NCBI RefSeq assembly: GCF_018350175.1
Contig: NC_058368.1
Coordinates: 19,222,001 to 19,286,000, forward strand
Reading direction: 5' to 3'
DNA from: Felis catus
Taxonomy: Eukaryota
Length of the DNA stretch: 64,000 bases
The notes beneath the pieces were generated by a model. It was given only the letters and a program-made list of their open reading frames with translations. It was not told where the DNA came from and did not search any database. The stretch's first letter is position 1. The number at the start of each line of letters is the position of its first letter. Positions 23,781 to 61,452 of the stretch are shown one piece after another. The position numbers and the translations under genes were made by a program.

Positions 23781-24515
23781 TTAGTTTAAGACCTTACACA
23801 GACCTTTCTTGATGCTGATGATTTCTAGATTATGAAATTCCTATCCTTGTCAGTGCCCAGTGTGATGGGAAATCATGTGCTGCCTCAGGGACCTGTGGAA
23901 TGGACTGGCCAACAGTGAATCTTCCTCAGCCATAGTGATGGTTGTTGTGACCTTGAGCAAGTCCTTTCTCTGGGAGTCTCCCACGGCCATGCAAATTCAA
24001 TGAGTTGCCTTACACCTATGCACCCAGGCTGCTACACAGAGCTCACACAGTAAGCAGTTCTTGACTGGAAAGATGCATATCTGTGAGATCCTCTGGAAAT
24101 TACTCATAGCAAGCCCTTCTTTTCTAAGTTCCCACAAGTTACCGCCATCAAAAAAGCTCTTCAGATAAATTAGATAAAGAAACAGTACCCAATGGTTCTG
24201 AAAGCTTGGTTAAACCAATTTTGAACACTAAATTCACAGTAGGCAAGTTTGGCGCCCAAAGGATGTCTCCCTCTGGTTTCTGCTTCCTGTAAACCAGGGG
24301 TTCCTGCCTGGAGGGAGTCTCACCAGTTATGTAAATGAGTGAAGCAAGCTAAAAGAGAGTGTTAGGAATTGTGAAAACGTGGATTGTAGAGGCACCAATA
24401 AAAGCATTCTATTTAAAACTTTTTGTCTAAAAATTATCTGTAGGCCAAAGTTAATCCTCAGGCAACCAGACATCAACTTTTGTGGTTGTTTTTGAATTTG
24501 TATCGCTAGCCAAAT

Positions 24516-24842
24516 TGTAGCAAGATTCTCACACAGAGAGACGGGACACTGAGGCTCTTCTTTCCAGAAAGCAGCTTTATCCATGGCAGCATGGGCTTAG
24601 CCGGCTAAGACCCCAAAAAGGCTGAGCCCCGAGTGCAAGGGGGTGTAGCCTTTTATCCAATTTCTATTTCTTTGTCTCCTGTATCTGGTGACACATATAG
24701 TCTGATTGGACACACTCCAAGTTACAGAGTCGTGTCAGGGTTCTGCTTAAGTGTATAGGAGTTGATTGGGCCACGTGGCAGGTTGCCTTCCTTTGTTCTG
24801 AGAAAGCCTCCATCACGTTCTTTAGGGAGGGGCTCTACCACA
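24516..24842 (-). repeat. 3' LTR (327 bp)
   Basis: Direct repeat of 32348-32670; preceded on the minus strand by PPT AAAGGGGGGAA (24843-24853); CCAAT boxes at 24704-24709 and 24764-24769. Confidence 0.95.
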
Positions 24843-24924
24843 TTCCCCCCTTTGATGCTCAGACCTCGCATTTTGGGTCAAAGAGCATCATCTTGGTTTA
24901 GGGGTTTCTATTTCCATAACATCA

Positions 24925-25590
24925 TCACACGTACGGCCGTCTTCCATTTTGAGTCTCCTGGGTTAAGGATGGCAAAATTAATGGGGTTACAGGATCCTGA
25001 CTGGCAGTTTGACTCAGCCACACACTTCTGGAGGGCTGTTTTGTCTTCAGTCTGCCAGGTGGCCCAGGTGACACAGCTTCCATAAGGACAGAAAGACTGA
25101 GGTGGATGGGGTCAGTGACCACATAAACCAGACTCCTCGCACATGTGCTCATCATTGTGCTGGTAATCTCGATCCCATGCCAGACCTCCACGTGGCACAC
25201 CACATGGCAATATGTCACCTAGGCTGTGCATGCGTCAAAGCATATAGACACCGGCTGGCTTGGATTGGGAATTTGAGCTTTGTTAATTAGTCGGCCCACA
25301 CTGGTGGTGCCTGTCTTGGGGTGACTCCAGACCTCTAGCCATTCCTCCTTTGAGGAGCACTGTGGGTCAAAACAACTGTATTGACTCTCCCGTTGGTAGA
25401 TAGAATAGGTGGTCTTATCGCGTATGCAGGTCCCCAGGATCTTTCCCTGGCATGAGAAGTGGGTATGGTATAGTAAGGTCCAAGTGACTCTTTGGCCTGA
25501 CCTGGTGATGCAAATATGTGGGTCACATGATGAGGAATCTAGGTCTACAGAAGGGGTCCAGATTAGAAGCAACAGTACCAACGAAGCATC
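24925..25590 (-). pseudogene. env: Truncated env SU N-terminus, ERV3/HERV-E-like
   Basis: TLLYHTHFSCQGKILGTCIRDKTTYS...CFDP...VSICFDAC, then after a frame break FCPYGSCVTWATW...GSCNPINFAILNPGDSKWK; resembles ERV3 TLLYHTYYECAGTCLGTC and HERV-E-type SCVIWATW / CNPL motifs. Confidence 0.85.
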
Positions 25591-25899
25591 CTATTCACAA
25601 AAGGAAGGTGAGTGCTAATAGAGACCTCTCACCACACTCCCAGCTGGTCTGGGTGGCTTCTGCCAATCCTATGGTGAAAAGTGGAGCAAGGATCACAATA
25701 ACAGTGAGACACAAGGGGTGACAGCGCATCACAGTAAGGAAACATATAGAAGATAAGGACAGTCTATTTGTTCCACCAGACTGTGGACTCCTCAAGCTTC
25801 TGCCATGCGTGGTCAGCTTCCAGAGTGACTAAAGCAGGGCTGCAGTCTCCCGGAGCCCCTGGAGTTGCAGATTGCTTCTTTCGTATGGTCAGCTTGCGT

Positions 25900-26245
25900 G
25901 GCGTTGATGAATCAGGAACGCACCTCCGCTACCTTTACTGTAGTAAGGCTGGACAAGGGGACAATGAATGGGTCTCTCCAGAGGGGCTTTAGGGGTTGGA
26001 CATTCCATTCCTTTACCCACACAGCATCTCCTGGTTTAAAGGGGTGAGCGTCTGTGGTCAGACACAGGTAATCGCTCCCTAACCCAGTGGTGTAAGGTGG
26101 TTAAGGTGAAGACAAGGGCCCGCATCTGTTGCCTCAGGGTTAGATTGCCTATCTCCTTTAGATACCACCCCCTTATGCCCTTGATAATGGGGGGGGCACC
26201 CATAAAGGATTTTATAAGTGGAGAACCCCATCTGCTTCTTCAGCC
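25900..26245 (-). pseudogene. pol: Integrase C-terminal remnant (HERV-E/ERV3-like)
   Basis: GFSTYKILYGCPP...LKEIGNLTLRQQM...WVRERLP...HPFKPGDAVWVKEWNVQPLKPLWRDPF...TTVKV, with frameshifts. Confidence 0.85.
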
Positions 26246-26459
26246 TTTCACTTGCAGCTATAGTCTGCCTCCTGAAGGTCACTTATCTCTCCCTGCCTAA
26301 TGTTAACCCTTCCTCTATTCATTCCTCCCCCTGGAATAGGGCCCCGAACTGCCTTTAGGGAACAGGGATGATGACCATTCTGGCTTCTTCAAGCTGATAA
26401 GGGACTGTGTCAGGGTACAGCAGTTAGAGCCTACCAAGGGTCCGTCAAGTGGCCCATCG

Positions 26460-26930
26460 TAGGGCTCTGCAGAAAGGCTGACAGGCACGAGGCGGCACAA
26501 ACATTGGCGGACACAAAGAGAAAAACACAAAGTAAAGATTATACTGACCAACAAGACGGCATCTTAAGATACTGTCCCCAGTTCCCAAATCAGTCAAAGA
26601 ATCCAGGAGAGACCCTGACTTTGACCAATTATGGCCACATGTCATCTATCAGTTCTAAGACTATGTGAGAATTATCAGTTATATTGAAACAACACATGTC
26701 AGGGAATCTCTCATAACCCAGGTGATGGAGAAGCAGTAATTAACGGTGGCTCTATTCTCCAAGAGTGGGGCCCTAACTTGATTTAATTTTTTTTTATTTA
26801 AAGCATCTAAAGCTTGTGAGGTGTTATTTAGAGTTTGGCTGAGTATAAGCAGATGGTTTGCTTTATTTCGAGGTATAAGACTTTTTCAAGAGCTGGGGGT
26901 CCTACCAGAGAAAGAGTCAAGGTAGCCATT
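26460..26930 (-). pseudogene. env: env TM remnant (fusion region, heptad, ISD-like segment, CX6CC, membrane anchor), ASLV-gp37-like
   Basis: SLVGPPALEKVLYLEIKQTICL / TLNNTSQALDALNKKKLNQVRAPLLENRATVNY / LLLHHLGYERFPDMCCFNITDNSH...FFD*FGNWGQYLK / LVSIIFTLCFSLC across several frameshifts. Confidence 0.85.
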
Positions 26931-26949
26931 TACCATTACTAATTCACAA

Positions 26950-27400
26950 ACATTTAGGTAAGCTGAACCCAGGTATTATTTCATAAGGCAGAGCTTTTAT
27001 TACCTCTTGTGCCTTTTCACTTTTTTTGTTTTGTTTTGTTTTTTAGAGGACGGCCTCTACCCAATTAGTAAAAGTATCAACCCATCCCAACAGATGTTGG
27101 CATTCCTTCGACCTTGGCATATGAGTGAAACCTAATTGTCAGTCTTCCCTAGGCCTCCAGTTCCTTGATGGCCTGGGAGAGCCAGTTTGTAGTCGAGAGG
27201 ATCGTTTCTAAGGCATACTTCACAGGCTGATACTACTTGCTGAACTGTCCTTGACAAATTTTTCCCAGTAAACATCCTTTGGGCCATTTGATAAGTTTTA
27301 TTCCTCCCTAAATGAAAGGCCTGATGCAGTGCTTTAATGATCTTTTAGCTCTGTGAGCTCATTAAGAGTTATTGCCCCTGCTCTCTTTGTAACCATCCCG
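26950..27400 (-). pseudogene. pol: Integrase N-terminal remnant (HHCC and first core Asp region), HERV-W/ERV9-like
   Basis: HQAFHLG...QMAQRMFTGKNLSRTVQQVVSACEVCLRNDP; FTHMPRSKECQHLLGWVDTFTNWVEA; SEKAQEVIKALPYEIIPGFSLP. Confidence 0.9.
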
Positions 27401-27489
27401 AGGGCTAGAGACAGGGTCCATGAGTCAGACCCCAGTTTGTTTCCTTGGGAGAGTAGGTGGGATTGAGTCCCCTTTAAAAATTGATACAG

Positions 27490-27830
27490 CAGGCAAGCTA
27501 TTTTCTGAACTCAGGATCCACAGCCTACCAAATCCAGTAATTCCCAGAAACTCACACAATTGTTGATCGGTCCTGGAATTAGCAGCACTACAGTCTCTGA
27601 TTTTGTTATAATGTCCCTTCCTAGTAACGCTCTCTGGTAGTATCAAGAAAGAAGCAGAAAAAATTAGTTTTCCCCGTATGCATCCCAGGGGCTGAAAGAA
27701 AAATTTGGTTAAAAGTTTTCCGGAGATGCCTCTGATCATTATCCTACATTTGGATAGTTGCCCCGGAGTGGAAAGGAGGGCAGAAAAGGTGGCTCCGGTA
27801 TCTAGAAAGAAATGAACCAGGCTTTTAGTC
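27490..27830 (-). pseudogene. pro: Retroviral protease remnant fused to an RT thumb fragment
   Basis: FFLDTGATFSALLSTPGQLS (DTG at 27794-27802)...FSASFLILPES, then QLCEFLGITGFGRLWI in the same frame. Confidence 0.9.
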
Positions 27831-27949
27831 ACCTGAGTTTTCCAGAGTTCCCCCAGGCTCCGAGGCTCCCCAGGCTTCCAAAAGACTGTTGGTTCCCAGG
27901 AGCCATAGGTCCTTTTCAGGGACACTGGTTATCTGAGCCCTTACAGAGA

Positions 27950-28630
27950 GAGGTCCCTGAGGGCATTTAGACTTCCAGTGACTGTCTCCAGATAAGGGGT
28001 ATGGCTAGGAGGGCTTTGACTTCTGTGGTCCCTTCAGAGGGCAGCCTCAATTTCCAGTGCCCTGACTGGCCACGTAAGAGGAGTCTGGTCCCAGACCTCG
28101 GGAAGTCTGGTCTTAATGCATAATGCATAAGGCCACAATTAAGGTCTCATATTTTTCTTAAGCCCTTTTCCTGTTTTTTGTTGTTGTTGTTGTTGTTGTT
28201 TGTTTGTTTGTTTTGATCTCAGTTGCAATAACCCACTTGTAAAAGCTCCTCCATGGTCCCTTCAAGGCCAACAGCCAATTTTTGCATTTTCTCTATCTAG
28301 GGTTGATTGAGTGACAAATTTGTCCTTTAAAATCATCTCAGCCTTAAGGGTGTCAGGGGAATAGCCATATATTTAATGAGAGCCTCCCTCAACCTCTCCA
28401 GGAAGGCCATTGGGCTCTCATTCTGTGTAAAATAGTGGCTAATTTAGCATAATTTAAGGGCTTAACCTTAGACCTCCTTAATTTCTCTACAGCACAAGTT
28501 TGGAAGTGGTAGCAATACCATTTCTTAATGGGACGGACATAGTCCCAGTTAGAATCTTGGGATGGAACTACCTGGGCCCTGGTGGAAAACTCCAAGTTCC
28601 CTATAGTACCTCCAGTCCCATGATGATTAA
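27950..28630 (-). pseudogene. gag: gag CA C-terminus and NC remnant (HERV-W/ERV9-like, two degenerate zinc knuckles)
   Basis: QVVPSQDSNWD...HFQTCAVEKLRRSKVKPLNYAKLATI, FLERLREALIKY, ILKDKFVTQS, GQSGHWK and GDSHWKSKCP. Confidence 0.88.
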
Positions 28631-29605
28631 TGAGTTGTTTTTTTATTGTTTGTTTGTGTTTGCTTGTTTTTGTTTTCTTGGAGTTTATGTATCAAAATCA
28701 TCCCAATTTTTCAGAATGCATCCCAAAGGAGTATTGGCCTTGGTTGGGGAATTGCCCATCTATAGGAAAAAGGAGGAAGAGGCATCCCTTAATTTTCATA
28801 GTTGGCCAGGAGAAGCCTCATCTCCTAGCCCTGCGTTTTGGCTGGCTATTCGACTGGCAGCCAAAAGCTTTGTCAGTCTCACGAGGTGCTGGGAGCAGTC
28901 GCTCTTATCCAGGCTTGACCCTACCTCCGAGAATTGACCTCGGCTTTCTCCTATCCCTTTGTTTTCTGCCTGCGGGAATTTGGGGATATCGACTGTGGCC
29001 AAGCAAGACTTCCCTGGTTGTAGAGGACGCACTAATTTTATTTGGCCCAACAGTAATCCTCTTTACAAATACATTTTAAAAGGCTGGGGAAAACCATTTT
29101 TGTAAGGATAAAATTGGTCATCAAGGGGGCTAAAAGGGCCAAAGTCGAGGTCTATTTCCTTGCCTTTTTCAGCAGTGCCCACATAAATATGTTCTAGCCA
29201 CATGGATATCCACTTTAGAGTATCTAGGGTTACAAATTGGCACACCCTGGGCTAAATGTAGCAAAATGGCTCCTATGTATTCCAGTAAAAGCCCTTTATA
29301 TATTATAGTCATCTATCTCTTATAAGGCACAGGCATCCCTTTCTTTGCTAGACAGAAACAACACAAATGTGGAGCATTTGGAGGCTGGCAGCAAGGACGT
29401 CGTCACCTTCTCCCCAGCCTTTGGATCAAAGGAGGGGCAATTTCAATCAAGCCTTGAATAAAACAACTCAAAAGGGCATGCTGTCCTGCCCTTCTGGTTA
29501 AAAATCATATTTTTTTCCATCTTTTTGGGCAGACAAAAAGGGAAAACTTTGTTTACCTCTTTTTTTATTAAAAGCATACCAACCATCTAAGAAAACTTTG
29601 CCTTT

Positions 29606-29832
29606 GGGGCGCCTGGGTGGCGCAGTCGGTTAAGCGTCCGACTTCAGCCAGGTCACGATCTCGCGGTCCGTGAGTTCGAGCCCCGCGTCAGGCTCTGGGC
29701 TGATGGCTCGGAGCCTGGAGCCTGTTTCCGATTCTGTGTCTCCCTCTCTCTCTGCCCCTCCCCCGTTCATGCTCTGTCTCTCTCCGTCCCAAAAATAAAT
29801 AAAAACGTTGAAAAAAATTAAAAAAAAAAAAA
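29606..29832 (+). mobile_element. Young SINEC_Fc inside the provirus
   Basis: Near-TSD aagaaaactttgccttt / aagaaaactgccttt. Confidence 0.96.
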
Positions 29833-30515
29833 GAAAACTGCCTTTTTAACAAAGAGTAAAGCAGAATTTTCATCTTATACCAGCGTACTTTTAAAACCCA
29901 TTTATTTTAACCTTAGTCCATTCTGACCACATATAAAATTTCTTTCCAAAGAATTCCCTTCACAAACCTTCTACAACTCTTCTTTGCTTTCAGATTTTGA
30001 CCTAAGCCCTTTTTCTCCAAACAACCAGTCTCATTTAGGACAATATTACTTTCTTTTACCTTCAACAAAAAATGTGTTCCCATTTCTTATACCTTTCTTA
30101 CATATCTCCTACTTTTCTACATACGGAGTTACTTTTCTTATTTTTCTCAGTCTTAATTACATTTAGCAGAATTTTAACTCTTAGAAACCTTAGTCTCCAG
30201 TGAAAAGTAAGTAGTAACCAGTTGTGAACTGTTACATCAGCATTTTTTTTTTTTTTTTTTGGCCATAAGCTTTAGCATTCCATTCGATTTGGAAAAGGCC
30301 TAAATGTCCAATGGATTTAATTTAGTTTATTATATAAGCAAACCTTTAAGGCTTTAGGTTACCAAAGACCCTGAAAGTTATCTTAATAATTACCCATGAA
30401 AACTTTGAGCCAGACAAAATGAACCATCAATTTAAGCCATGGTTTTTTTGGGTTGACAAATTGTAACAGAGGTACCTTGTTTCACCTGTGTTTACTTAAA
30501 AGTCCACCATTGAAT

Positions 30516-30742
30516 GGGGCGCCTGGGTGGCGCAGTCGGTTAGGCGTCCGACTTCAGCCAGGTCACGATCCCACGGTCCGTGAGTTCGAGCCCCGCGTCG
30601 GGCTCTGGGCTGACGGCTCGGAGCCTGGAGCCTGCTTCCGATTCTGTGTCTCCCTCTCTCTCTGCCCCTCCCCCATTCATGCTGTGTCTCTCTCTGTCTC
30701 AAAAATAAATAAACGTTAAAAAAAAAATTAAAAAAAAAAAAA
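30516..30742 (+). mobile_element. Young SINEC_Fc inside the provirus
   Basis: TSD aaaagtccaccattg. Confidence 0.96.
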
Positions 30743-31344
30743 GTCCACCATTGTCAACTTATACTTAGGGTACCAGTGAGGAAATGTGAGGTGGGTGGTG
30801 TAAGTCTAAGGGGATGTTCTTTGCTCTCTGACAGCAAGGGAGGGAGGCACCCAGATGGTCTAGGAGCCAGATATGGAAGCTGCGCCCAAGGCGGCGCAGA
30901 AACAGGATGGGGAGAGGAAGGCGGAGGAGGTAGGTGCCACCAAGAGGCCTGGAGGCAGATGAAAGGCCAGAGGGCAGAGAAAGAGGTCTCCTGGTCCTAA
31001 AGCCTGTCAGCTCACACAGAAAAGCGGATGCAGATTTTTTCCACCGCCAAGGGGAATTAGGCAGTCCACACAGATCTAGAGAAGACAGGGAATTTCCCCC
31101 AAACCAAAGGAGTCTTGGCAGCTGCTTGGGAATATTCCTTAATGTCTCCATCCTGAGGTAGACTAACGAGAGTCAGTTGGCTCTCATTATCGTAGTCATT
31201 GACCCAGGAAATGAGTGAGGGAGAAGCCCCCACCTACGGTTAGAGTTACGGGAATGTATGAGGGGAAACAGTGAGAGAGAGTGTCGGTCTCCTTTGTTAG
31301 GGATGGCCTGTGTTTTGTTTTGTTTTGTTTTTTTAGCAACCTGG

Positions 31345-31795
31345 GTTAGGTGTTGGAACACTTCTATATATTGATAAGGGTTGTCTGAAAATTTGCCCAG
31401 GTGCTTTTTATTTGCTTAGAATCTTGCAAGGGAAATGGAACCTTTATGGGGCCAAATCCACCATAACGCATTGTAGTCAATAGATGCATTGAACAACATG
31501 CCTTGATTTTAGGGGGAGAATTTTTTATCCCTGGCAATCCTGGATAAGGAGGTCATGAGGGTCTAACAAGTGGCTTTTCCTGAGGAGAGGCCTCAGGGGG
31601 TGAGTCTGCGAGTACTTGCCTTTCTTGGCCCCTTTAAGGCAAAGAAGACGTGCAACATAAGGAACTTCTGACCATTTACCCTCTCTTCTACAATATGGAT
31701 CTAACTGTAACGTAGCACTACACTGAATACTTCCCTCGGGAGGCCAGGACTCTCCATCCTCCAGGAGATACTTCAGGCGCGTCTTAGCATTGGCA
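31345..31795 (-). pseudogene. gag: gag MA and CA N-terminus remnant (HERV-W/ERV9-like)
   Basis: EDGESWPPEGSI...LQLD...KWSEVPYV; FPLQDSKQIK / LGKFSDNPYQYIEVFQHLTQ. Confidence 0.88.
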
Positions 31796-32322
31796 GGTTC
31801 AGTATCAAGCCCTGACCCGGGTCAGACACCCGAGGAAGGTCTGACACCGCCTTAAGCCATATGAGGTCGCCAGGGAACCGCACATCAGCACTCAACACCA
31901 GCTTTGGCCCCTTGATCAGGCTGGAAACTTTCTGCTCTCCTTCTCATTCACACACAGTCACACAGCAACTCCAACCCATCGCCGAACGCCCGGCGCCTTA
32001 GAGTTGTGGTTTTGTTCCTTATGCCTTATGGGACTACTCAGGCAACTCTGGGAGGTGATCAGGCCCCCCCCCCTTCTGCCTCTTAGGGGCAGGTCTACCA
32101 AAAGGGACCCGGGGTCCTACCAGTCTGACATGTGGCGCTCCCTGAGCTGGTTGCTGGGCCTCACCGGTTCCATTGTGCGTCCCAGGTCCCTGCCCTGGCA
32201 CACCCGGAGGGGCTAGTCTTCTACAGATCAAGCCGTCCGCTGGCACCAGGAAAGGTGGCTTCTCCCGGCGCTCTGAGGTTCGCACCCCAGTGACAAAGGA
32301 GGAGGAAACGCACCGTCTCCGA

Positions 32323-32342
32323 ATCCTGGACGCAGGACCCCA
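32323..32342 (-). promoter_or_regulatory. Primer-binding site, degenerate tRNA-Pro type
   Basis: TGGGGTCCTGCGTCCAGGAT, 5 nt from the LTR; canonical Pro PBS is TGGGGGCTCGTCCGGGAT. Confidence 0.75.
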
Positions 32343-32347
32343 AGAAA

Positions 32348-32670
32348 TGTAGCAGGGTGCTTACACAGACGGGACACTGAGGCTCTTCCTTCCAGGAAAC
32401 AGCTTTATCCGTGCCAGCAGGGGCTCAGCCAGCTAAGACCCCAAAAAGGCTGAGCCCCGAGTGCAGCGGGGTGCAGCCTTTTATGCAATTGCTACTTCTT
32501 TGTCTCCTGTTTCTGGTGACATATATAGTCTGAGTGGACACAGTCCAAGTGACAGAGTCGTGTCAGGGTTATGCTTACGTGTATAGGAGTTGACTGGGCC
32601 ACGTGGCAGGTTGCCTTCCTTTGTTCTGAGAAAGCCTCCATCACGTTCCTTAGGAAGGGGCTCTACCACA
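32348..32670 (-). repeat. 5' LTR (323 bp)
   Basis: By manual alignment about 28 substitutions and one 4-bp indel versus the 3' LTR. Confidence 0.95.
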
Positions 32671-33179
32671 GAATGAGGTTTACATTAGTTCTTTGTTAAA
32701 CTACTATTACTAAATTCTATATGCAATACACAGAATTATTCAGTACCCAGGGTTACGTCCCACTGGTTGTAAACACTCAAGAAATTAAGCCCCGCCGGTT
32801 TTCAAAGCCAAATCTTATGGAGACTCATCTTCGCAGTGCAGCCCCCCCTGTGTCTGGGGTACCCCCTGTGGGGTCCCCTCCTCTCCCTTCTCGTCGCTTG
32901 TGGGGGGCCCCTCCTGTTTGTGGTTAGTCTTGCCAGGAGTTTTGTTCCCCACTGAATCTCCTCCCCACCTACCCTTTTCAACGTGGCCTCCTCTCTACAA
33001 AGAACTGTGGAAAGTCTGTTCCACCAGTCTTCGGGTTGCTTTCAGAGTTAGCGGCTCCGATGTGGCTGTTCTCTCCTTGTGTCGGTGGGACAAGGTGAGC
33101 TCAGGATCCTTCTGTTAGGTAGAAGCTAGATATGAGCAGTGGAAGGAACGACAGGAGGCAGAGTCCCAAATTTTTGAAG

Positions 33180-38339: not shown

Positions 38340-40060
38340 TTGATTTATGCATCAAAGGACACAATCAGAGGTCAAAAGGCAACCTATAGAATGGAAGAAA
38401 ATATTTATAAATTTTGTCTCTGATAAGGGATTGATATACAGAATATACAAAGAACTCCTACAACTTAACAACAAAAAAGCAAGATAATCTTACTTAAAAA
38501 TGGGCAAAGTTCTTGAATAGACGTGTCTCTAAAGAGGATATACAAATGACCGATAAGTATAGTCATTAGGGGAATGCAAATCAAAACTACACTGAGGTAT
38601 CACCTCACACCCATTAGGATGGCTACTGTTTAAAAAAAGAGAAAGAAAATAACAAGTGTTGGTGAAGATGTAAAGAAAATGGAACCTTTGTGCACACTAT
38701 CCACAGACACGTGAAATAGTGCAGCCACTATGAAAAACAGTACGGTGGTTCCCAAAAAAGTTAAACACAAAATTATCATATAATCCAGCAATTCTGCCTC
38801 TGGGTATATACTCAGAGGAATAAAAAGCAGGATCTTGAAGGGATATTTGCACACCCTTGTTCATAGCAGTATTATTCACAATAGTCAGACAATTTATTTT
38901 ATTTTATTTTATTTTTTATTTTTTATTTTTATTTTTTCAATATATAAAATTTATTGTCAAATTGGTTTCCATACAACACCCAGTGCTCATCCCAAAAGGT
39001 GCCCTCCTCCATACCCATCACCCACCCTCCCCTCCCTCCCACCCCCTATCAACCCTCAGTTTGTTCTCAGTTTTTAACAGTCTCTTATGCTTTGGCTCTC
39101 TCCCACTCTAACCTCTTTTTTTTTTTCCTTCCCCTCCCCCATGGGTTTCTGTTAAGTTTCTCAGGATCCACATAAGAGTGAAACCATATGGTATCTTTCT
39201 CTGTATGGCTTATTTCACTTAGCATCACACTCTCCAGTTCCATCCATGTTGCTACAAAGGGCCATATTTCATTTTTTCTCATTGCCACGTAGTATTCCAT
39301 TGTGTATATAAACCACAATTTCTTTATCCATTCATCAGTTGATGGACATTTAGGCTCTTTCCATAATTTGGCTATTGTTGTGAGTGCTGCTATAAACATT
39401 GGGGTACAAGTGCCCCTATGCATCAGCTCTCCTGTATCCCTTGGGTAAATTCCTAGCAGTGCTATTGCTGGGTCATAGGGTAGGTCTAGTTTTAATTTTC
39501 TGAGGAACCTCCACACTGTTTTCCAGAGCGGCTGCAGCAATTTGCATTCCCACCAACAGTGCAAGAGGGTTCCCATTTCTCCACATCCTCTCCAGCATCT
39601 ATAGTCTCCTGATTTGTTCATTTTGGCCACTCTGAATAGTCAGACAATTTAAATGACCATCAGTTGATGAATGGATAAACAAAATGTGGTGTATGCATAC
39701 AATGGAATATTATTCAGCCTTAAAAAGAAGGATAATTCTGACACAGGCTGCAACACGGATGAACCTTGAAGACATTATGGTAAGTAAAATAAACCAGTTA
39801 CAAAAGGACAAATACCGTATGATTCCCCTTATATGAGGTACAAGAGTAGGTAAATTCGTAAAGACAGGAAATAGAATGGTAGTTGCTAGTGCCTTCGGGG
39901 AAATAGGAGGGACAAGGAGTTGTTTAACAGGTATAGAGTTTCAGTTTTACAAGATGAAAAAGTTCTGGGGATTAAGTATAATAATGTGAATATACTTAAC
40001 AGTATTGAACTGCACAGTTAACAATTAAGATGGTAAATTTTATAAGTATTTTACCACAAT
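38340..40060 (+). mobile_element. L1MB-like ORF2 3' end and 3'UTR
   Basis: ORF2 C-terminal-like sequence and L1M-type 3'UTR, split by a young L1. Confidence 0.8.
38897..39634 (-). mobile_element. Young felid L1, 5'-truncated
   Basis: Open ORF2 C-terminus (181-aa ORF with CWRGCGE...HCWWECK); TSD aatagtcagacaattta at 38880-38896 and 39635-39651. Confidence 0.96.
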
Positions 40061-40504
40061 TTTTACAAGTCTGAATCAAAATAGCGTTAGGACCTCATGA
40101 TTTTTAAAAATATGTTTCCCAGTACTATCCTTTGAAAAGGCCAGAAGCAAAGGCACCCTTGATCTTGGTTTCTAAACACTATTTCCTACCAAAAGAAAGC
40201 AGAACTCTTTAAAGACATGGCTGATTTCAGCCCTGGGCAGAGAAACGCAAGTTGAACCCAGGACATCTTAATGTGCCAAAAAGCAAGAAAGCTCTAAGTT
40301 AGAAAGACTAACAGGGATCTTCCAAGAGGACACAGTAGCCAGTCTGAAAAGGCCCCCACTGGATAGATTCAAACAGTTTGGACATCAAAAGGAATAACTG
40401 ATTATAAACTATTACTTTGTTTTAAAACTCCATGAGTTAGTTCATGTATACAGAAATGATTATACTAGTGACTTACTTTAAAATTTAATAATTAGGGTGC
40501 CTGG

Positions 40505-41187
40505 CTGGCAGTGGGAATGCAAACCAGTGCAGCCGCTCTGGAAAACAGGGTGGAGGTTCCTCAAAAATTAAAATTAGAACTACCCTACGACCCAGCAATA
40601 GCCCTGCTAGGAATTTATCCAAAGGACACAGGAGTGCTGATGCATAGAGGCACTTGTACCCCAATGTTTATAGCAGCACTTTCAACAACAGCCAAATTAT
40701 GGAAAGAGCCTAAATGTCCATCAACTGACAAATGGAGAAAGAAGATGTGGTTTGTATATACAATGGAATACTACTTGGCAATGAGAGAGAATGAAATCTG
40801 GCCATTTGCAGCAACGTGGATGGAACTGGAAAGTATTATGCTGAGTGAAATAAGTCAGTCAAAGACAGATATCATATGTTTTCACTCATGTGTGGACCTT
40901 GAGACACTCAACAGAAAACCATGGGAGAGGGGAAGGGGAAAAAATAGTTACAAACAGAGGGGGAGGGAGGCAAACCATAAGAGACTTAAATACAGAGAAC
41001 AAACTGAGGGTGGATGGGAGGTGGGGAAGAGGGAAAACGGGTGATGGCATTGAGGAGGGCACTTATTGGGATGAGCACTGGGTGTTGTATGGAAGCGATG
41101 AACCACAGGAATCTACCCCAAAAACCAAGGGCACACTTCACACACTGTATGTTAGCCAATTGGACAATAAATTATATTTAAAAATAA
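40505..41187 (+). mobile_element. 5'-truncated felid L1
   Basis: [14 protein letters not shown] peptide and 3'UTR; TSD taataattagggtgcctgg at 40486-40504 and 41188-41206. Confidence 0.95.
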
Positions 41188-50704: not shown

Positions 50705-52925
50705 TCTTCTGAGATTTTATTTAAATTCAAATTGGTTAATATATAGTGTAGTATTGGTTTCAGGAGTAGAACTAGTGATTCATTGCTTACATATAACACC
50801 CAGTGCTCATCCCAACAAGTGCCCTCAATGTCCATCACCCATTTTCCCCGCCCTCCCAACCCCCCACCTCCATCAACCCTCAGTTTGTTCTCTGTATTTA
50901 AGAGTCTCTTATGGTTTGCCTCTCTCTCTGTTCGTATCTTATTTTATTTTTCCTTCCCTTCCCCTATGTTCATTTGTTTTGTTTCTTAACAATCAGACAA
51001 AAATAAAAAATAAAAGACATCCAAATCAGCAAGGAAGAAGTCAAACTTTCATTCTTCATGGATGATACTCTACATGGAAAACCTTGAAGTCTCCACCAAC
51101 AATGTGCTAGAACTGATACATGAATTCAGCAAAGTTGCAAGATGTAAAATCAACATACAGACATCTGTTGCATTTCTATATGCCAATAATGAAGCAGCAG
51201 AAAGAGAATCAAGGAATCAATCCTATTTACAATTGCACCAAAAACATATCTAGGAATAAACCTAACCAAAGAGGTAAAAGATCTGTACTCCAAGAACTAT
51301 AAATACTTATGAAAGAAATTGAAGAAGACACAAAGAAATGGTAAAACATTCCATGCTCGTGGATTGGAAGAACAAACATTGTTAAACTGTCTATACTACC
51401 CAAAGCAATCTACACATTCAATGCAATCCCTATTAAAATACTACCAGAATTTTTTCACAGAGATAGAACAAATACTCCCAAAATGTGTATGGAACCAGAA
51501 AAGATCCCGAATAGCCAAAGTAATGTTGAAAACGAAAAACAAAGTGGAAGGCATCACAACTGCACACTTTGAGCTGTATTAGGAAGCTATAATAATCAAG
51601 ACAAGATGGTACTACCACAGAAACAGACACAGAGATCAATAGAACAGAATAGAGAACCCAGAAGTGGACCCACAACTGTATGGTGAACTCAATTTTGACA
51701 AAGCATGAAAGACTATCCAATGGAAAAAAGACAGTTTCTTCAACAAATGGTGTTGGGAAAACTGGACAGCGACATGCAGAAGAATGAAACCAGACCCCTT
51801 TCGTACACCATACACAAAAATAAATTCAAAATGGATGAAAGACCTAAATGTGAGACAGGAAAGCTTCAAAGTCCTAGAGAACAACACAGGCAGCAACCTC
51901 TTTGAGCGCAGCCACACTAACCTCTTACTAGACACATTTCCAGATGCAAGGGAAATAAAAGCAAAAATGAACAATTGGGACCTCATCAAGATAAAAAGCT
52001 TCTCCACAGCAAAGGAAACAATCGACAAAACTAAAAGGTAGCCTACAGAATGAAAGAAGATATTTACAAATGGCATATCTGATAAAAGGCTAGTATCCAA
52101 AATCTATAAAACACTCATGAAACTCAACACCCAAAAAATAAACAATCCAGTTAAGAAATGGGCAGAAGACATGAATAGATACTTTTCCAAAGAAGACATC
52201 CAGATGGCAAACAGATTCATGAAAAGATGCTCAACATCACTCATTATCAGAGAAATACAAATCAAAACCACAATAAGATGCCACCTCACACCTGTCAGAA
52301 TGGATACAATTAACAACTCAGGAAACAACAGATATTGGCAAGGATGTGGAGAAAGGGGAACCCTCTTACACAGTTGGCAGGAATGCAAACTGGTGCAGTC
52401 ACTTTGGAAAACAGTGTGGAGGTTCCTCAAAAACTTAAAGATGGAGGGGCTCCTGGGTGGCTCAGTTGGTTAAATGTAGGATTCTTGGTTTCAGCCCAGG
52501 TGATGATCTCACAGTTTCTGAGTTTGAGCCCCCACTCAGGCTCTATGCTGACAGTGCAGCACCTGCTTGGGATTCTCTTTCTCTCCCTCTCTCTGCCCTT
52601 CTCCTGCTCATGCCATCTCTGTCTCTCTCAAAATAAATAATTGAACTTAAAAAAAAAAGTTAAAGATAGAAATACCTACGATCCATTATTTGTACCACTA
52701 CGTATTTATCCAAAGGATAAAAAATACTGATTCGAACAGGGCACATGCACCCCAATGTTTATAGCAGCACTGTCAACAATAGTCACATTATGGAAAGAGC
52801 CCAAGTGTCTATTGACTGATGAATGGATAAAAAAGATGTGGTATATATCTACATATAGATATATACACACACATATCCATACAATTGAATATTACTCAAG
52901 CCATCAAAAAGAATGAAATCTTTTC
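50705..52925 (-). mobile_element. Felid L1 with 5' inversion (3'UTR on -, 50705-50987; ORF2 segment on +, 50990-52925); SINE at 52446-52658
   Basis: Orientation switch at ~50988; the + segment ends just upstream, in L1 coordinates, of where the - segment starts. Confidence 0.8.
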
Positions 52926-56060: not shown

Positions 56061-59000
56061 CAAGGGTGAGTCAAGGTGGCAGAGAAGTAGGGGGATCAGA
56101 ATTTCCCTCCTCCCTCAAATGCAGCAGTATTGAGGTCAGAACACTTGGAATACCAGGAATCCCAGATAGAGGGTGACAGAAAAATATCCACAGATGGAAA
56201 AAATTTGGCGGGACAGAGGTGTGTGTGTTTGCAGACTGGGAGAGATAAAACGGGTGGCATAGGCACTGGAGGGGGATCTTTTTTGGTGGAGAAGCAAAGG
56301 GAAAAGAGAGGCTGTGGAAGTGTGGGATTGTAGTTGGACGAGAGAAAAACCTCTCTAGACTATGGATTGGGGGGAAAAATATGGACAGAGCCAGTTCCTA
56401 CTTTGCAAATAGCCTTAGGAGTGAAGATCGGAGTTTTCAGGTTTGCACAACTTTCTCCCACCAGAGCAGCTGGCCATGTGCATGTCCCTGGGGGAAGGGG
56501 AGCCAGCCCGGGGCTCAGTATCAATTTCCTGCAGTGCACTGGGAAACAGCAGTCCCCTCCCTTGAATACTGTGGGAAGAGGATATATTGCCCCTCCAAGG
56601 ACAAAAGACTTGCAGGCGCCAGCCAGAGGCCCTTTGTCACCTGGGCAGAGTGGCATTATTCCAGAATTGGGTCCATAGGGAACAGGATTCTTTAAGACAT
56701 CGGGTTTTAAATCCCAGCTGAGCACCTAAGAGGTGTGGGAGACTGGAACAGGACAAGTCAGCCGGTCAGTGTTACTCAGTGAGGACTGCCTGGACTGCAT
56801 GATTTGAGACACCAGGTGGGGAGAGGAGAGATTGGGGTGTCACCATTGTTCTCCCCATCACCAGCACAGTGGGACTTCAGAGAACAGGACAGAAGCCCCC
56901 AGTGGAGGCAGGACTGCTTACACCAAACCCAGCCCCTCCCGTGCCTTGTAAATGCTTATGTATGAGAGTGAGATTGACACTGACAACCAGATGGCCTCTC
57001 CTCCAGAACAGCACAGCCACAGGTCCCAAGCACCAAGAGACAACTGTCCTGCAGTTTTGCATGTTAGTCTGGGGTTTTTTGTTTGTTTGTTTCCTCTTGT
57101 CTTTCTTTCCTGTTCTGGATGTTTCTTTGTTTAATCAAGCATTTTTACTCTATTCTTTTTATACCTTTCCTGTATCTCCTTTATTTTCCTTTCTCTCCCT
57201 CTCTCTAGATTAAGCCTTACAGTTTCTTTGATTCTCTGCCTGGTCTCATTTTTTTCTGCCCTTGTCATTTCTGTCTTTGTATAGGATAAGGCTTCTTCCC
57301 TCCCCTCACCCCTGTTTTTTTCCAGGGTTACTTCAATGAACAAATCAAAACACACCTGGTCCAATCCAACACTACAACCAGTGAGATAAAGCAACCAAAG
57401 ACACAACAGTGTACCAACACACTCCAAAAACACTTCTTGAATTGCCAGGTCCTGGACAGTGTATGATCCCCTTTTAATATAGTAGTACTCTCAGGTTCAG
57501 GACACATAACAAGCTATTAAAATACATAAAAGACAGAAAACTAGCCAAAGTGTTCAAAAGGAAGAATTCTGCTCAAAAGAAATTCTAGGAAGAAATAATA
57601 GCCAGCAAATTGCTCAAAACAGATATAAACAATATATCTGATCATGAATTTAGAATAATAGTCATAAGACTAATAGCTGGGCTTGAAAAAAGCATAGAAT
57701 ATGGCAGAGAATCTATTGCTGCATAGATCAAGGACCTAAGAAATAGTCACGACAAATTAAGAAATGCTGTAATTGAGATGCAAATGCACAATAAGCTAGA
57801 TGCAGTGACAGCAAGGATGGAAGAAGCAGAGGTGAGAATAGGTGAAATAGAAGATAAAATTATGGAAAATGATGAAGCTGAGAAAAAGAGGGATAGGAAA
57901 TTACTAGACCACAAGGGGAGAATTAGAGACCTATGTGATTCAACAAAATGAAGTAATGTCCATATCATAGGAGTTCCAGAAGAATAAGAGAGAAAGGAGC
58001 AGAAGGCTTATTTGAATAATTTACAGCTGAGAACTTCCCTGATCTGGGGAAGGAAGCAGACATCCAAGTCCAGGATGCACAGTGAACTCCCTTCCAAATC
58101 AACAAAAACAGGTAACACCAAGACATATCATAGTGAAACTGGCAAAATACAAAGATAAAGAGAGAATTCTGAAAGCAGCTTGGGACAAATGGGCTTTAAC
58201 CTACAAGGGTAAATACAGAAGGGTTGTAGCAGACCTGTCCACTGAAACTTGGCAGGCCAGAAGGAAATATTCAATGTGCTGAATAGGAAAAATACACAGC
58301 CAAGAATCTATCCAGCAAGACTGTCATTCAGAATAAAGTCTTTCCCAGACAAACAAAAAACTAAAGGAGTTCATGACTACTAAACCAACCCTGCAAGAGA
58401 TCCTAAAGGGGACTCTGTGAGTGGTAAGCAGCAAAGACTAAAAAGTACCAGAGACATCACCACAACCATGAAACCTACAGATAACACAATGACACTAAAT
58501 TCATATCTTTCAATAATAACTCTGAATGTAAATGGACTAAATGCCCCAATCAAAAGATACAGGATATCAGGTTGGATAAAAAAAAAACAAAAAACAAAAA
58601 CAAGATCCATATATATACTGCCTACAAGAGACTCATTTTAGACCTAAAAACATCTGCAGATTGAAAGTGAGGAGATAGAAAACCATCTATCATGCTACTA
58701 GATGTCAAAAGAAAGCTGGAGTAGCCATACTTATATCAGACAGACTAGATTTTAAACCAAAACTGTAACAAGAGATGAAGAAGGGCATTATATCAAAATT
58801 AAGGGGTCAATCCATCAAGAAGAGGTAATAATTGTAAATATTTATGCCCCAAATGTGAGAAACCCAAATATATTAATCAATTAATCACAAACATAAGCAA
58901 ACTTATTGATAATTATACTGTATAATTCTACTGTAATTGTAAGTGACTTTAATACTCCACTTAAAGCAATGGAAAGATCATCTACACAGAAAATCAATAA

Positions 59001-61452
59001 GGAAACAATGGCCTTGAATGATACACTGAACCAGATGGACTTGACAGGTATATTCAGAACTTTTCATCCCAAAGCAGCAGAATACACATTCTTCTCGAGT
59101 GCACATGGAACTTTCTCCAAAATAGATCATATATGGGGTCACATAGCAGCCCTCAACAAATATAAAAGAATTGAGTTCATACTATGCATATTTTCAGATC
59201 ACAATGTTATAAAACTTGAAATCAACCAAAAGAAAAAATTTAGAAAGCCTCCAAATACATGGACGTTAAAGAACATTCTACTAAAGAATAAATGGGTCAA
59301 CCAGGAAATTAAATAAATAAAAAAAATATATGGAAGCAAATGAAAATGAAAACATGGCAGTCCAAACCCTTTGGGATGCAACAAAGGCAGTCCTAAGAGG
59401 AAAATACATTGCAATCCCAGCCTATCTCATGAAACAAGAAAGATCCCAACAACAGAACCTAATCTCACACCTAAAGGAACTAGAAACAGAGCAGCAAAGA
59501 AAGCCCAAAGCCAGCAGAAGATGAGAAATAATAAAAATTAGAACAGAAATAAACAATATAGAATACCCAAAAAACAGTGGAACAGATCAATGAATCTAAG
59601 AGCTGGTTTCTTGAAAGAATAAACAAAATTGATAACCCCCTAGCCAGACTTCTTAAAAAGAAAAGAGAGAGGACCCAAATAGATAAAATCATGAATGAAA
59701 GAGGAGAGATCACAACCAATACCACAGAAATACAAACAATTATCAGAGAATACAATGAAAAATTATACTCCAAAAAACTGGACAATCTAGAAGAAATGGA
59801 CAAATTCTTATATACCCACACACTACCAACCCAAATGGGAAGAAGTAGAAAATTTGAACAGACCAATAACCAGCAAAGAAATGGAATCAGTAATCAAAAA
59901 TCTCCCAACAAATAAGAGTCCTGGGTCAGATAGCTTCCCAGGAGGATTCTATCAGATATTTAAAGCAGAGTTAATACCTATCCTTCTCAAGCTGTTCAAA
60001 ATAGAAATGGAAGGAAAGCTTCCAGACTCATTCTATGAAGCCAGCATTAACTTGATTCCCAAACCAGAGACCCCACTAAAAACAGGCCAATATCCCTGAT
60101 GAATATAGATGCAAAATTCTCAACAAGATACTAGCAAATCAAATTCAACAGTATATTAAAAGAATTATTCACCATGATCAAGTGAGATTCATTCCTGCAG
60201 GGCTGGTTCAATATTTCTTCAAATCAATCAATGTGATCATCACATTAATAGAAGAAAAGATAAGAACCATATGATCCTGTCAATAGATGCAGAGAAAGCA
60301 TTTGACAAAATACAACACTGTTTCATAATAAAAACCCTCAAGAAAGTTGGGATGGAAGGAACATACTTTAATATCATAAAAGCCATATATGAAAGGCCCA
60401 CAGCTAATATCATCCTCAATGGGAAAAAACTGAGAGTTTCCCTCTGAGATCAGGAACATGACAGGGATGTCTACTTTCACCACTGTTGTTTAATATAGCA
60501 TTGGAAGTCCTAGCCTCAGCAATTAGACAATAAAACAAAAGGCATCCAAATTGGCAAAGAAGTAGTCAAACTTTCACTTTTCATGGATGACATTATACTG
60601 TAGATGGAAAACCCAAAAGACTCCACCAAAAGACTGCTAGAACTGATACATGAATTCAGCAAAGTTGCAGGATATAAAATCAATGTACAGAAATCGGTTG
60701 CATTTCTATACACCAATAATGAAGCAACAGAAAAAGAAATAAAGGAATAGATCCCATTTACAGTTCCACCAAGAACCATAAAATACCTAGGAATAAACCT
60801 AACCAAAGAGGTAAAAGATCTGTACACTGAAAACTATAGAAAGCTTATGAAAGAAATTGAAGAAGACACAAAGAAATGGAAAAACATTCCATGCTCATGG
60901 ATTGGAAGAACAAATATTGTTAAAATGTCAATTATTACCCAAAGCAATCTACACATTCAATGCAGTCCCAATCAAAATAGCACCAATACTCTTCACAGAG
61001 CTAGAACAAACAATCCTAAAATTTGTATTGAACCACAAAAAAACCCACATAGCCAAAGTAATGTTGAAAAAGAAACCCACAGCTGGAGGCATCATAATCC
61101 CAGACTTCAAGCTGTATTACAAAACTGTAATCATCAAGACAGTATGGTATTGGCACAAAAACAGACACATAGACCAATGGAATAGAATAGAGAACCCAGA
61201 AATGGACCCACAAATACATGTACAACTGATATTTGACAAAGCAGGAAACAGTATCCAATGGGGAAAAAAAGTCTTTTTAGCAAATTGTTCTTGGAGAACT
61301 GAACAGCAACATGCAGAAGAATCAAACTGGACCATTTTCTTACACCATACACAAAAATAAATTCAAAATGGATAAAAGACCTGAATGTGAGACAGGAAAC
61401 CATCAAAATCCTAGAGGAGAAAACCTCTTTGACCTCAGCCTCAGCAACTTCT

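Follow-up and report, generated by a model that had tools for sequence, protein, structure and literature searches.

Anatomy of the element

The window (the whole 64,000-nucleotide stretch of felid DNA analysed here) contains an LTR-bounded element on the minus strand that runs from 32670 to 24516, has TG...CA LTR ends, and lies between the copies of a 4-bp target duplication, which differ at one position (24512–24515 and 32671–32674). Read in its own direction, the element consists of an LTR, a degenerate primer-binding site, a gag piece, an A-rich leader that carries two SINEs, another gag piece, protease, a short part of late reverse transcriptase (RT), the 5′ half of integrase, an envelope TM segment, the 3′ part of integrase, an SU remnant, a polypurine tract (PPT), and the second LTR. 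The features are as follows.

32348..32670, minus strand: 5′ LTR, 323 bp, TG...CA (window self-comparison)
32325..32345, minus strand: degenerate primer-binding site
31350..31800, minus strand: first gag remnant, end of matrix and start of capsid (by-eye match to printed HERVW and HERV30 Gag)
30514..30755, plus strand: tRNA-derived SINE in the leader-like region
29592..29845, plus strand: second SINE, same family as that at 30514..30755
28200..28765, minus strand: second gag remnant, start of matrix and C-terminal part of capsid (HERV-W/HERV30-type, by-eye match)
27601..27841, minus strand: protease remnant (RVP, E 0.2, and Pol alignment)
27440..27574, minus strand: short late RT piece (Pol alignment); most of RT and RNase H deleted
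26932..27455, minus strand: 5′ half of integrase, comprising the zinc finger and the core as far as the position of the second catalytic Asp motif (Integrase_H2C2, E 1e-4, and Pol alignment)
26383..26923, minus strand: alpha-like env TM remnant (protein matches, tBLASTn, tree, alignment)
26333..26382, minus strand: 3′ UTR-like stretch after the TM end; the same sequence follows the TM in the unnamed fragment P0010
26322..26332, minus strand: internal PPT, then TG; resembles the element's own PPT
26262..26321, minus strand: putative U3-like start, about 60 nt; no match elsewhere in the window
25870..26260, minus strand: integrase 3′ part, end of core and GPY/F C-terminal domain (MLVIN_C, E 7.5e-9, and Pol alignment)
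24900..25730, minus strand: SU remnant of a second env, HERV3/EnvR-type N-terminal part with no accompanying TM (resembles the printed HERV3 Env by eye)
24843..24853, minus strand: the element's PPT
24516..24842, minus strand: 3′ LTR, 327 bp (295 matches, 28 mismatches, and 4 gaps to the 5′ LTR; K2P 0.093)

We take the counterpart of the degenerate primer-binding site in a paralogous contig to be a tRNA-Pro-like site, and the two SINEs presumably belong to a carnivore/felid tRNA-derived family. Motifs of the HERVW/HERV30 type were recognised by eye in both gag pieces, and the pol pieces, from which the RT core is deleted, align to gammaretroviral Pol. An earlier reading of the sequence alone (the sequence-only reading) had described the host as a gamma-like ERV, and the Pol alignment and Gag motifs bear this out, with the TM sitting in a HERV-W/9-type backbone. 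The HERVW and HERV30 Gag and HERV3 Env sequences used for the by-eye comparisons are those printed in the supplement of PMC4724089. Residues 898–971 of L023 Pol align to 27168–26932 and residues 1044–1058 to 26234–26190, leaving a gap in integrase of about 70 residues (about 972–1043) that includes the third catalytic residue. The TM had been said to replace the integrase core; this is correct for the second half of the core, which is missing, but not for the first half, which is kept at 27168–26932. Pfam, atlas, and PDB searches gave no match for the SU remnant, and a related-locus scan with the integrase 3′ piece gave two weak matches (43% over 28 residues) in long contigs, which we regard as chance.

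The distance of 0.093 between the LTRs, calculated as K2P with CpG sites kept, corresponds to an age of about 26 My (sampling range roughly 16–36 My) at the felid rate of 1.8e-9 that is used in the accessible text of PMC4643047. We describe the locus as a mosaic ERV of class I; it is dead and non-autonomous, and its integration dates to roughly 25 My ago. The SINEs, as well as orthologous contigs from organism A that are nearly identical, mark the host as a felid. Identity with FcERV-gamma6 was tentatively rejected, as the accessible text passages contain no link between the two.

Two separate HERV-W/30-type gag starts lie in this one element (31800–31350 and 28765–28200, minus strand). The first gag has about half the contig depth of the element's centre, which suggests that copies differ in their 5′ part, and depth over the leader stretch at 30993–31283, perhaps common to another repeat family, is several-fold higher than over its neighbours. 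LINE-1 fragments in the window (39085–41044, 51433–52473, and 58897–61360, with an inverted pair at 39119–39499 and 40564–40944) are ordinary, and we take them to be ORF2-like ends.

Extent and type of the TM remnant

A degraded retroviral TM occupies 26923–26383 on the minus strand and is spread over three frames. All peptides quoted in the sequence-only reading, which gave no strand, were found on the minus strand: EIKQTICL in one frame that extends to 26849, TLNNTSQAL...VRAPLLENRATVNY in a second frame (26846–26739), and LLLHHLGYERFPDMCCFNITDNS in a third (from 26736). The extent given there, 26460–26930, covers a real TM but is too short, as the TM-derived segment reaches to about 26270. 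The remnant retains the end of the fusion peptide, a Cys, HR1 with an N-glycan sequon, the ISD, the CX6CC position, HR2, the membrane anchor, and the cytoplasmic tail as far as the C-terminus, and it carries at least three frameshifts, one of them inside the ISD, and several stops. The ISD with its spacing and the CC pair are present, with Tyr instead of the first Cys; the codon at 26715–26713 is TAT, as had been read before, and the position is Cys in all 51 other aligned TM rows. The full ISD–CX6CC motif occurs in four of the five nearest relatives. The Cys downstream of the fusion peptide is kept, and the region of the upstream Cys is deleted.

A phmmer search with the third-frame piece alone against 1.84 billion proteins gave nine matches, seven of them TM proteins (E 1.7e-16 to 5e-5); the other two, P0006 and P0012, are unrelated repeat proteins and were rejected. 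When the nearest proteins and further envs were used as tBLASTn queries, collinear matches ran from 26923 to about 26350 and took in all three TM pieces. The third-frame matches and the collinearity of the three pieces with many envs thus exclude chance likeness for the TM. Single TM pieces matched no Pfam family and no PDB relative, a word-indexed protein search with the third-frame piece returned 19 candidates, none of which scored, and related-locus scans for the TM found none in viral contigs and none in metagenomes.

The TM remnant is real and is non-functional at this locus. No intact env ORF is present there, as the TM carries frameshifts and stops, and depth over the TM in one raw RNA run was 1–6 on both strands, which gives no sign of expression. 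A co-opted env or syncytin was rejected on these two grounds, and the TM has no evident function at the locus. In some paralogous contigs of X1 and X3 and in a few X24 reads, 63 nt within the TM (HR2 region; window 26623–26687) are skipped, which appears to be a sub-lineage deletion.

A profile made from the six nearest fragments and the window TM piece scored 50.7 bits on the ASLV TM, its best solved-structure (PDB) match, 31 bits on CAS virus GP2, about 22 bits on Marburg/Ravn GP2, and about 14 bits on the ectodomains of syncytin-1 and syncytin-2. A profile search with longer proteins gave 95 matches; the named ones are nearly all bird or reptile proteins and include one rabbit and one Rhinolophus protein. 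The TM tree (97 columns, LG+G4) comprised the window TM, with X at breaks, 36 of the 128 matched proteins, two ALV loci, and 13 gamma/D-type loci; two unrelated matches, one frameshifted fragment, 12 proteins that lack the anchor motif, and redundant bird and turtle rows were left out. In this tree, whose sampled rows do not include EnvR, syncytin-Car1, or HERV-S, the window TM lies inside the alpha-like group, which is split from the 13 gamma rows with support of 100/100. Together with five unnamed fragments, it forms a branch of its own (99/96), on the side of the tree that holds the alligator, turtle, lizard, Rhinolophus, Perognathus, Manis, Oryctolagus, and Aotus rows (90/93). Grouping with ordinary mammalian gamma TMs, named beforehand as the outcome that would speak against the sequence-only reading, did not occur.

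Ectodomain identity to the window TM was 50–58% for the unnamed neighbours, 43% for P0011 (a 437-aa env), 42% for the Rhinolophus row, 40% for the alligator row, 30–31% for ALV, and 18–23% for the gamma rows. AU tests rejected placement of the window TM with MLV-type rows (p 0.001), with RD114/D-type rows (p 0.0001), and in one clade with ALV and two avian rows (p 0.021), and did not reject the window clade as sister to all gamma rows (p 0.20) or its union with the Rhinolophus row (0.28), the SIRP-like group (0.14), or P0011 (0.31). An HR1 sequon is present in 33 of the 34 alpha-like rows that cover HR1 and in none of the 13 gamma rows, and the window TM has NNT/NTS at this place. Likewise, a Cys after the fusion peptide is shared by the window TM and 31 of 33 other alpha-like rows, and a CCFN insertion is common to the window TM and the alpha-like rows; neither occurs in any of the 13 gamma rows. 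The HR1 sequon is a mark of the stutter subgroup in the accessible portions of PMC9967133 and PMC8278194 (its supplements 7 and 9 included), and the EnvR, Car1, and HERV-S rows as printed in file 7 of PMC8278194 have the GGxC form.

As far as sequence comparison can place it, the window TM belongs to the alpha-like env group, outside the ALV/avian clade. The claim that it is ASLV-like and not an ordinary mammalian gamma-type TM agrees with the profile scores, the tree, the AU tests, and the counts of sequon, Cys, and CCFN; the closeness to ASLV itself was overstated, as the ALV loci are more distant than the alligator, Rhinolophus, and P0011 envs and the unnamed fragments, and the ALV/avian grouping is rejected. 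That the TM is after all an ordinary mammalian gamma-type TM, or resembles alpha-like envs by chance, is hardly credible: the AU test did not reject a sister relation of its clade to the gamma rows as a whole, and the EnvR, syncytin-Car1, and HERV-S types stand outside the tree, but the three features common to the alpha-like rows are missing from every gamma row, both specific gamma placements fail in the AU tests, and the printed EnvR, Car1, and HERV-S rows are of the GGxC form. We rejected an ordinary gamma TM on the AU tests and motif counts. That a mammalian gammaretrovirus recently and directly took up an ASLV-type env from birds, the strong form of the earlier idea, is very improbable and was also rejected; the ASLV TM is the best solved-structure match, but identity to ALV is low, unnamed, reptile, and mammal envs are nearer, and the clade with ALV and two avian rows was the grouping that the AU test rejected at 0.021.

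Shared junctions and the history of the mosaic

Among the matches listed (24 of about 292,750 pieces), diverged contigs bridge the integrase–TM (5′) junction at 26668–27338 (72 differences; X1 and X3) and again at 26522–26981 (65 differences; X3), and the 3′ junction at 26063–26405 (43 differences; X1); none of the matches listed spans the whole element. The TM and the flanking pol have similar summed contig depth, which exceeds the depth of single contigs by a factor of tens and does not equal copy number. The same LTR type stands at both ends and the junctions are common to diverged contigs; the mosaic criteria of Vargiu also call for several copies with different flanks. By these comparisons, several copies appear to carry the same mosaic junctions.

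Downstream of the anchor, the C-terminus of the TM tail shares GPLD and PLSA motifs with P0011. This unnamed env is unbroken, its ectodomain scores 56.7 bits on ASLV versus about 22 bits on the syncytin-2 and MLV ectodomains, and its anchor aligns well with syncytin-2; alpha-like ectodomains with class I tails therefore exist as whole genes. P0007 is, like P0011, an unnamed env with an ASLV-like ectodomain and a syncytin/HERV-W-like anchor and tail. The 3′ UTR-like stretch at 26333–26382 has what we take to be a class I likeness, and the TG that follows the internal PPT is found after three of the 15 purine tracts of the element. Because the TM reaches its C-terminus and is then followed by UTR, PPT, and TG, the normal layout of a genomic 3′ end, the TM, tail, 3′ UTR, PPT, and putative U3-like start together point to the 3′ end of a retroviral genome. 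The internal PPT sits in the integrase region, placed like a central PPT; that it acted as a plus-strand primer during spread is speculation.

To our judgement, the chances are somewhat better than even that the TM is the native env end of a W/9-like parent, placed where it is by an integrase-to-TM deletion, after which a second ERV took over as template. The middle part of the element would derive from parent A, a HERV-W/9-like gammaretrovirus with its own alpha-like env. A deletion in parent A would have removed everything between mid-integrase and the fusion peptide (the rest of integrase and all of SU), so that its TM came to follow the integrase core directly. Later, with two RNAs packaged together, reverse transcriptase would have changed template close to the beginning of A's U3; the new template, parent B, would be the source of the integrase 3′ part, of the HERV3-type SU remnant, and of the 3′ end of the element. 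The resulting mosaic RNA would then have been copied in trans by proteins of a helper ERV, producing several copies with the same junctions. We infer the template switching and the copying in trans from known Harlequin-type mosaics, as described in the accessible text of PMC4724089. A W/9-type gag and a HERV3-type SU require one switch of parent between protease and SU in any case, and a switch at the U3-like start makes this the cheapest history, with one deletion and one switch compared to three switches for an insertion; on that account, we read the TM as native and not inserted.

The GC content of the integrase 5′ half (0.41) is close to that of the second gag piece (0.40), and that of the 3′ half (0.51) is close to that of SU (0.50); we take the 5′ half to be W/9-like and the 3′ half to be HERV-I/HERV3-like. 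The difference in composition between the two halves is not significant (p 0.068), and the TM differs as much from the 5′ half (p 0.019) as from the 3′ half (p 0.015). The GC contents agree with two parents, although this test is weak. An undeleted parent A was not seen among the matches listed (24 of about 292,750 pieces).

The small integrase gap (about 70 residues) and the correct order of the halves count against a deletion followed by a switch, and suit a replacement as well. In such a third-party capture, a roughly 660-nt 3′ fragment (TM, tail, UTR, PPT, and U3 start) of an unrelated mammalian ERV would have replaced about 200 nt of a single integrase by two non-homologous template switches, after which the chimera amplified. 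We consider this rather unlikely: it accounts for the collinear halves with so little missing, for a TM composition that differs from both, and for junctions common to paralogues, but it needs an extra switch to combine W/9-type gag with HERV3-type SU, and the class I-type tail is what would be expected of a W/9-like parent. Nesting at the DNA level, with provirus A inserted into the pol of provirus B, both trimmed by deletions, and the composite copied or duplicated, is improbable. The two gag starts and the lower depth over the first gag would fit an inner element inside an outer one, but complete LTRs would be expected on either side of a nested provirus, and the element has no inner LTR pair and no internal duplication besides the outer LTRs and the SINEs.

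A native env end in a W/9-like parent also differs from the env capture from a distant retroviral lineage that had been proposed. The TM is broken and has no SU of its own, and the 3′ UTR and PPT behind it argue for the 3′ end of a parent genome; capture at this locus is not needed either, as alpha-like env with gamma-type pol in mammals is already described in the accessible text of PMC13568524. The alternative outcome named at the time, the native env of a well-described HERV-W/9-related family, agrees with the favoured reading in that the TM would be native, but the analysis linked it to no well-described family.

Relatives and host range

Alpha-like env was first noted in bats in bioRxiv 836874; the accessible text of PMC13568524 (2026; CHIRalphaEnv) describes its stable pairing with gamma-type pol in bats, afrotherians, rodents, lagomorphs, and moles, and that of bioRxiv 2024.03.17.585361 describes it in the pocket mouse, rhinoceros, pangolins, and rabbit. 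The felid locus resembles CHIRalphaEnv in combining an alpha-like TM with a mammalian ERV and gamma-type pol, the latter seen here in the Pol alignment and the MLVIN_C match, and in lying among reptile-related envs and not inside the avian alpharetroviruses; as described there, CHIRalphaEnv includes intact, co-opted ORFs, whereas the felid locus is a broken, TM-only remnant in a mosaic. The AU test neither joined the Rhinolophus row to the window clade nor excluded it.

The group with a SIRP-like RBD (Env-Per, Env-Mja, and Env-Dbi; accessible text of bioRxiv 2024.03.17.585361) likewise has a mammalian alpha-like TM and an HLGC/MCCF loop, and the window ectodomain is 34–43% identical to the Perognathus, Manis, and metaclust rows. 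This group is a branch separate from the window TM in the tree, although their union is not rejected, and the window TM has no SU; Env-Dbi is described with an ERV-L/S-like backbone, in contrast to the gamma-type backbone here. With ASLV/ALV gp37, its best PDB match, the window TM shares the HR1 sequon, the Cys after the fusion peptide, the ISD, and the CX6CC–FN loop, the last with Tyr in place of the first Cys, but it differs in its low identity, its clade, its class I-type tail, and its gamma-type backbone. The mosaic itself recalls Harlequin and the HERV9/HERVIP/HERV3 mosaics of humans, which the accessible text of PMC4724089 presents as defective class I mosaics of W9-type and HERVERI-type parts that have the same LTR type at either end and are ascribed to co-packaging with template switching; those are primate elements, whereas this one is felid and has an internal PPT as well as an alpha-like TM. 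Four alpha-type motifs were not found in the searchable supplement text of that paper, where the integrase-lineage motifs had no match either.

Ten carnivore genera (Felis, Panthera, Lynx, Acinonyx, Neofelis, Prionailurus, Canis, Mustela, Ursus, and Hyaena) are present in the list of screened genomes of PMC13568524 and absent from its hit table, in the accessible version of both. No report of alpha-like env in carnivores was found in the literature searched, which covered few subscription papers and included the accessible text of PMC10536682, PMC4643047, PMC4133949, PMC12323578, and PMC4373062. The felid family may already have a name in Repbase or Dfam. The felid TM mainly adds a host group and a branch to a known type of env and is not a new kind of system, and Carnivora are probably a new host order for alpha-like env. 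If so, Carnivora would join a host range in which the accessible text of PMC13568524 does not list them, although its screen covered felid genomes, and the extra branch would bear on the number of reptile-to-mammal env moves and on the backbones involved. Env-based screens miss TM stubs that are hidden inside pol.

A fuller reading, which we offer tentatively, is that the TM represents a mammalian alpha-like env branch not yet described, with a class I-type tail and a HERV-W/9-like carrier that infected the ancestors of carnivores over 25 My ago. It would have resulted from a reptile-to-mammal transfer independent of CHIRalphaEnv and the SIRP-like group, and would have been missed by screens because what felids keep is mostly a TM stub within a mosaic that was amplified and has an internal PPT besides the terminal one.

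P0013 (Perognathus) and P0015 (Manis) are alpha-like envs with an N-terminal Ig-like domain and match the SIRP-like RBD group in the accessible text of bioRxiv 2024.03.17.585361. P0040 (Aotus, a New World monkey) and P0028 (Oryctolagus, rabbit) are annotated alpha-like envs that group with the turtle and lizard rows, apart from the window branch.
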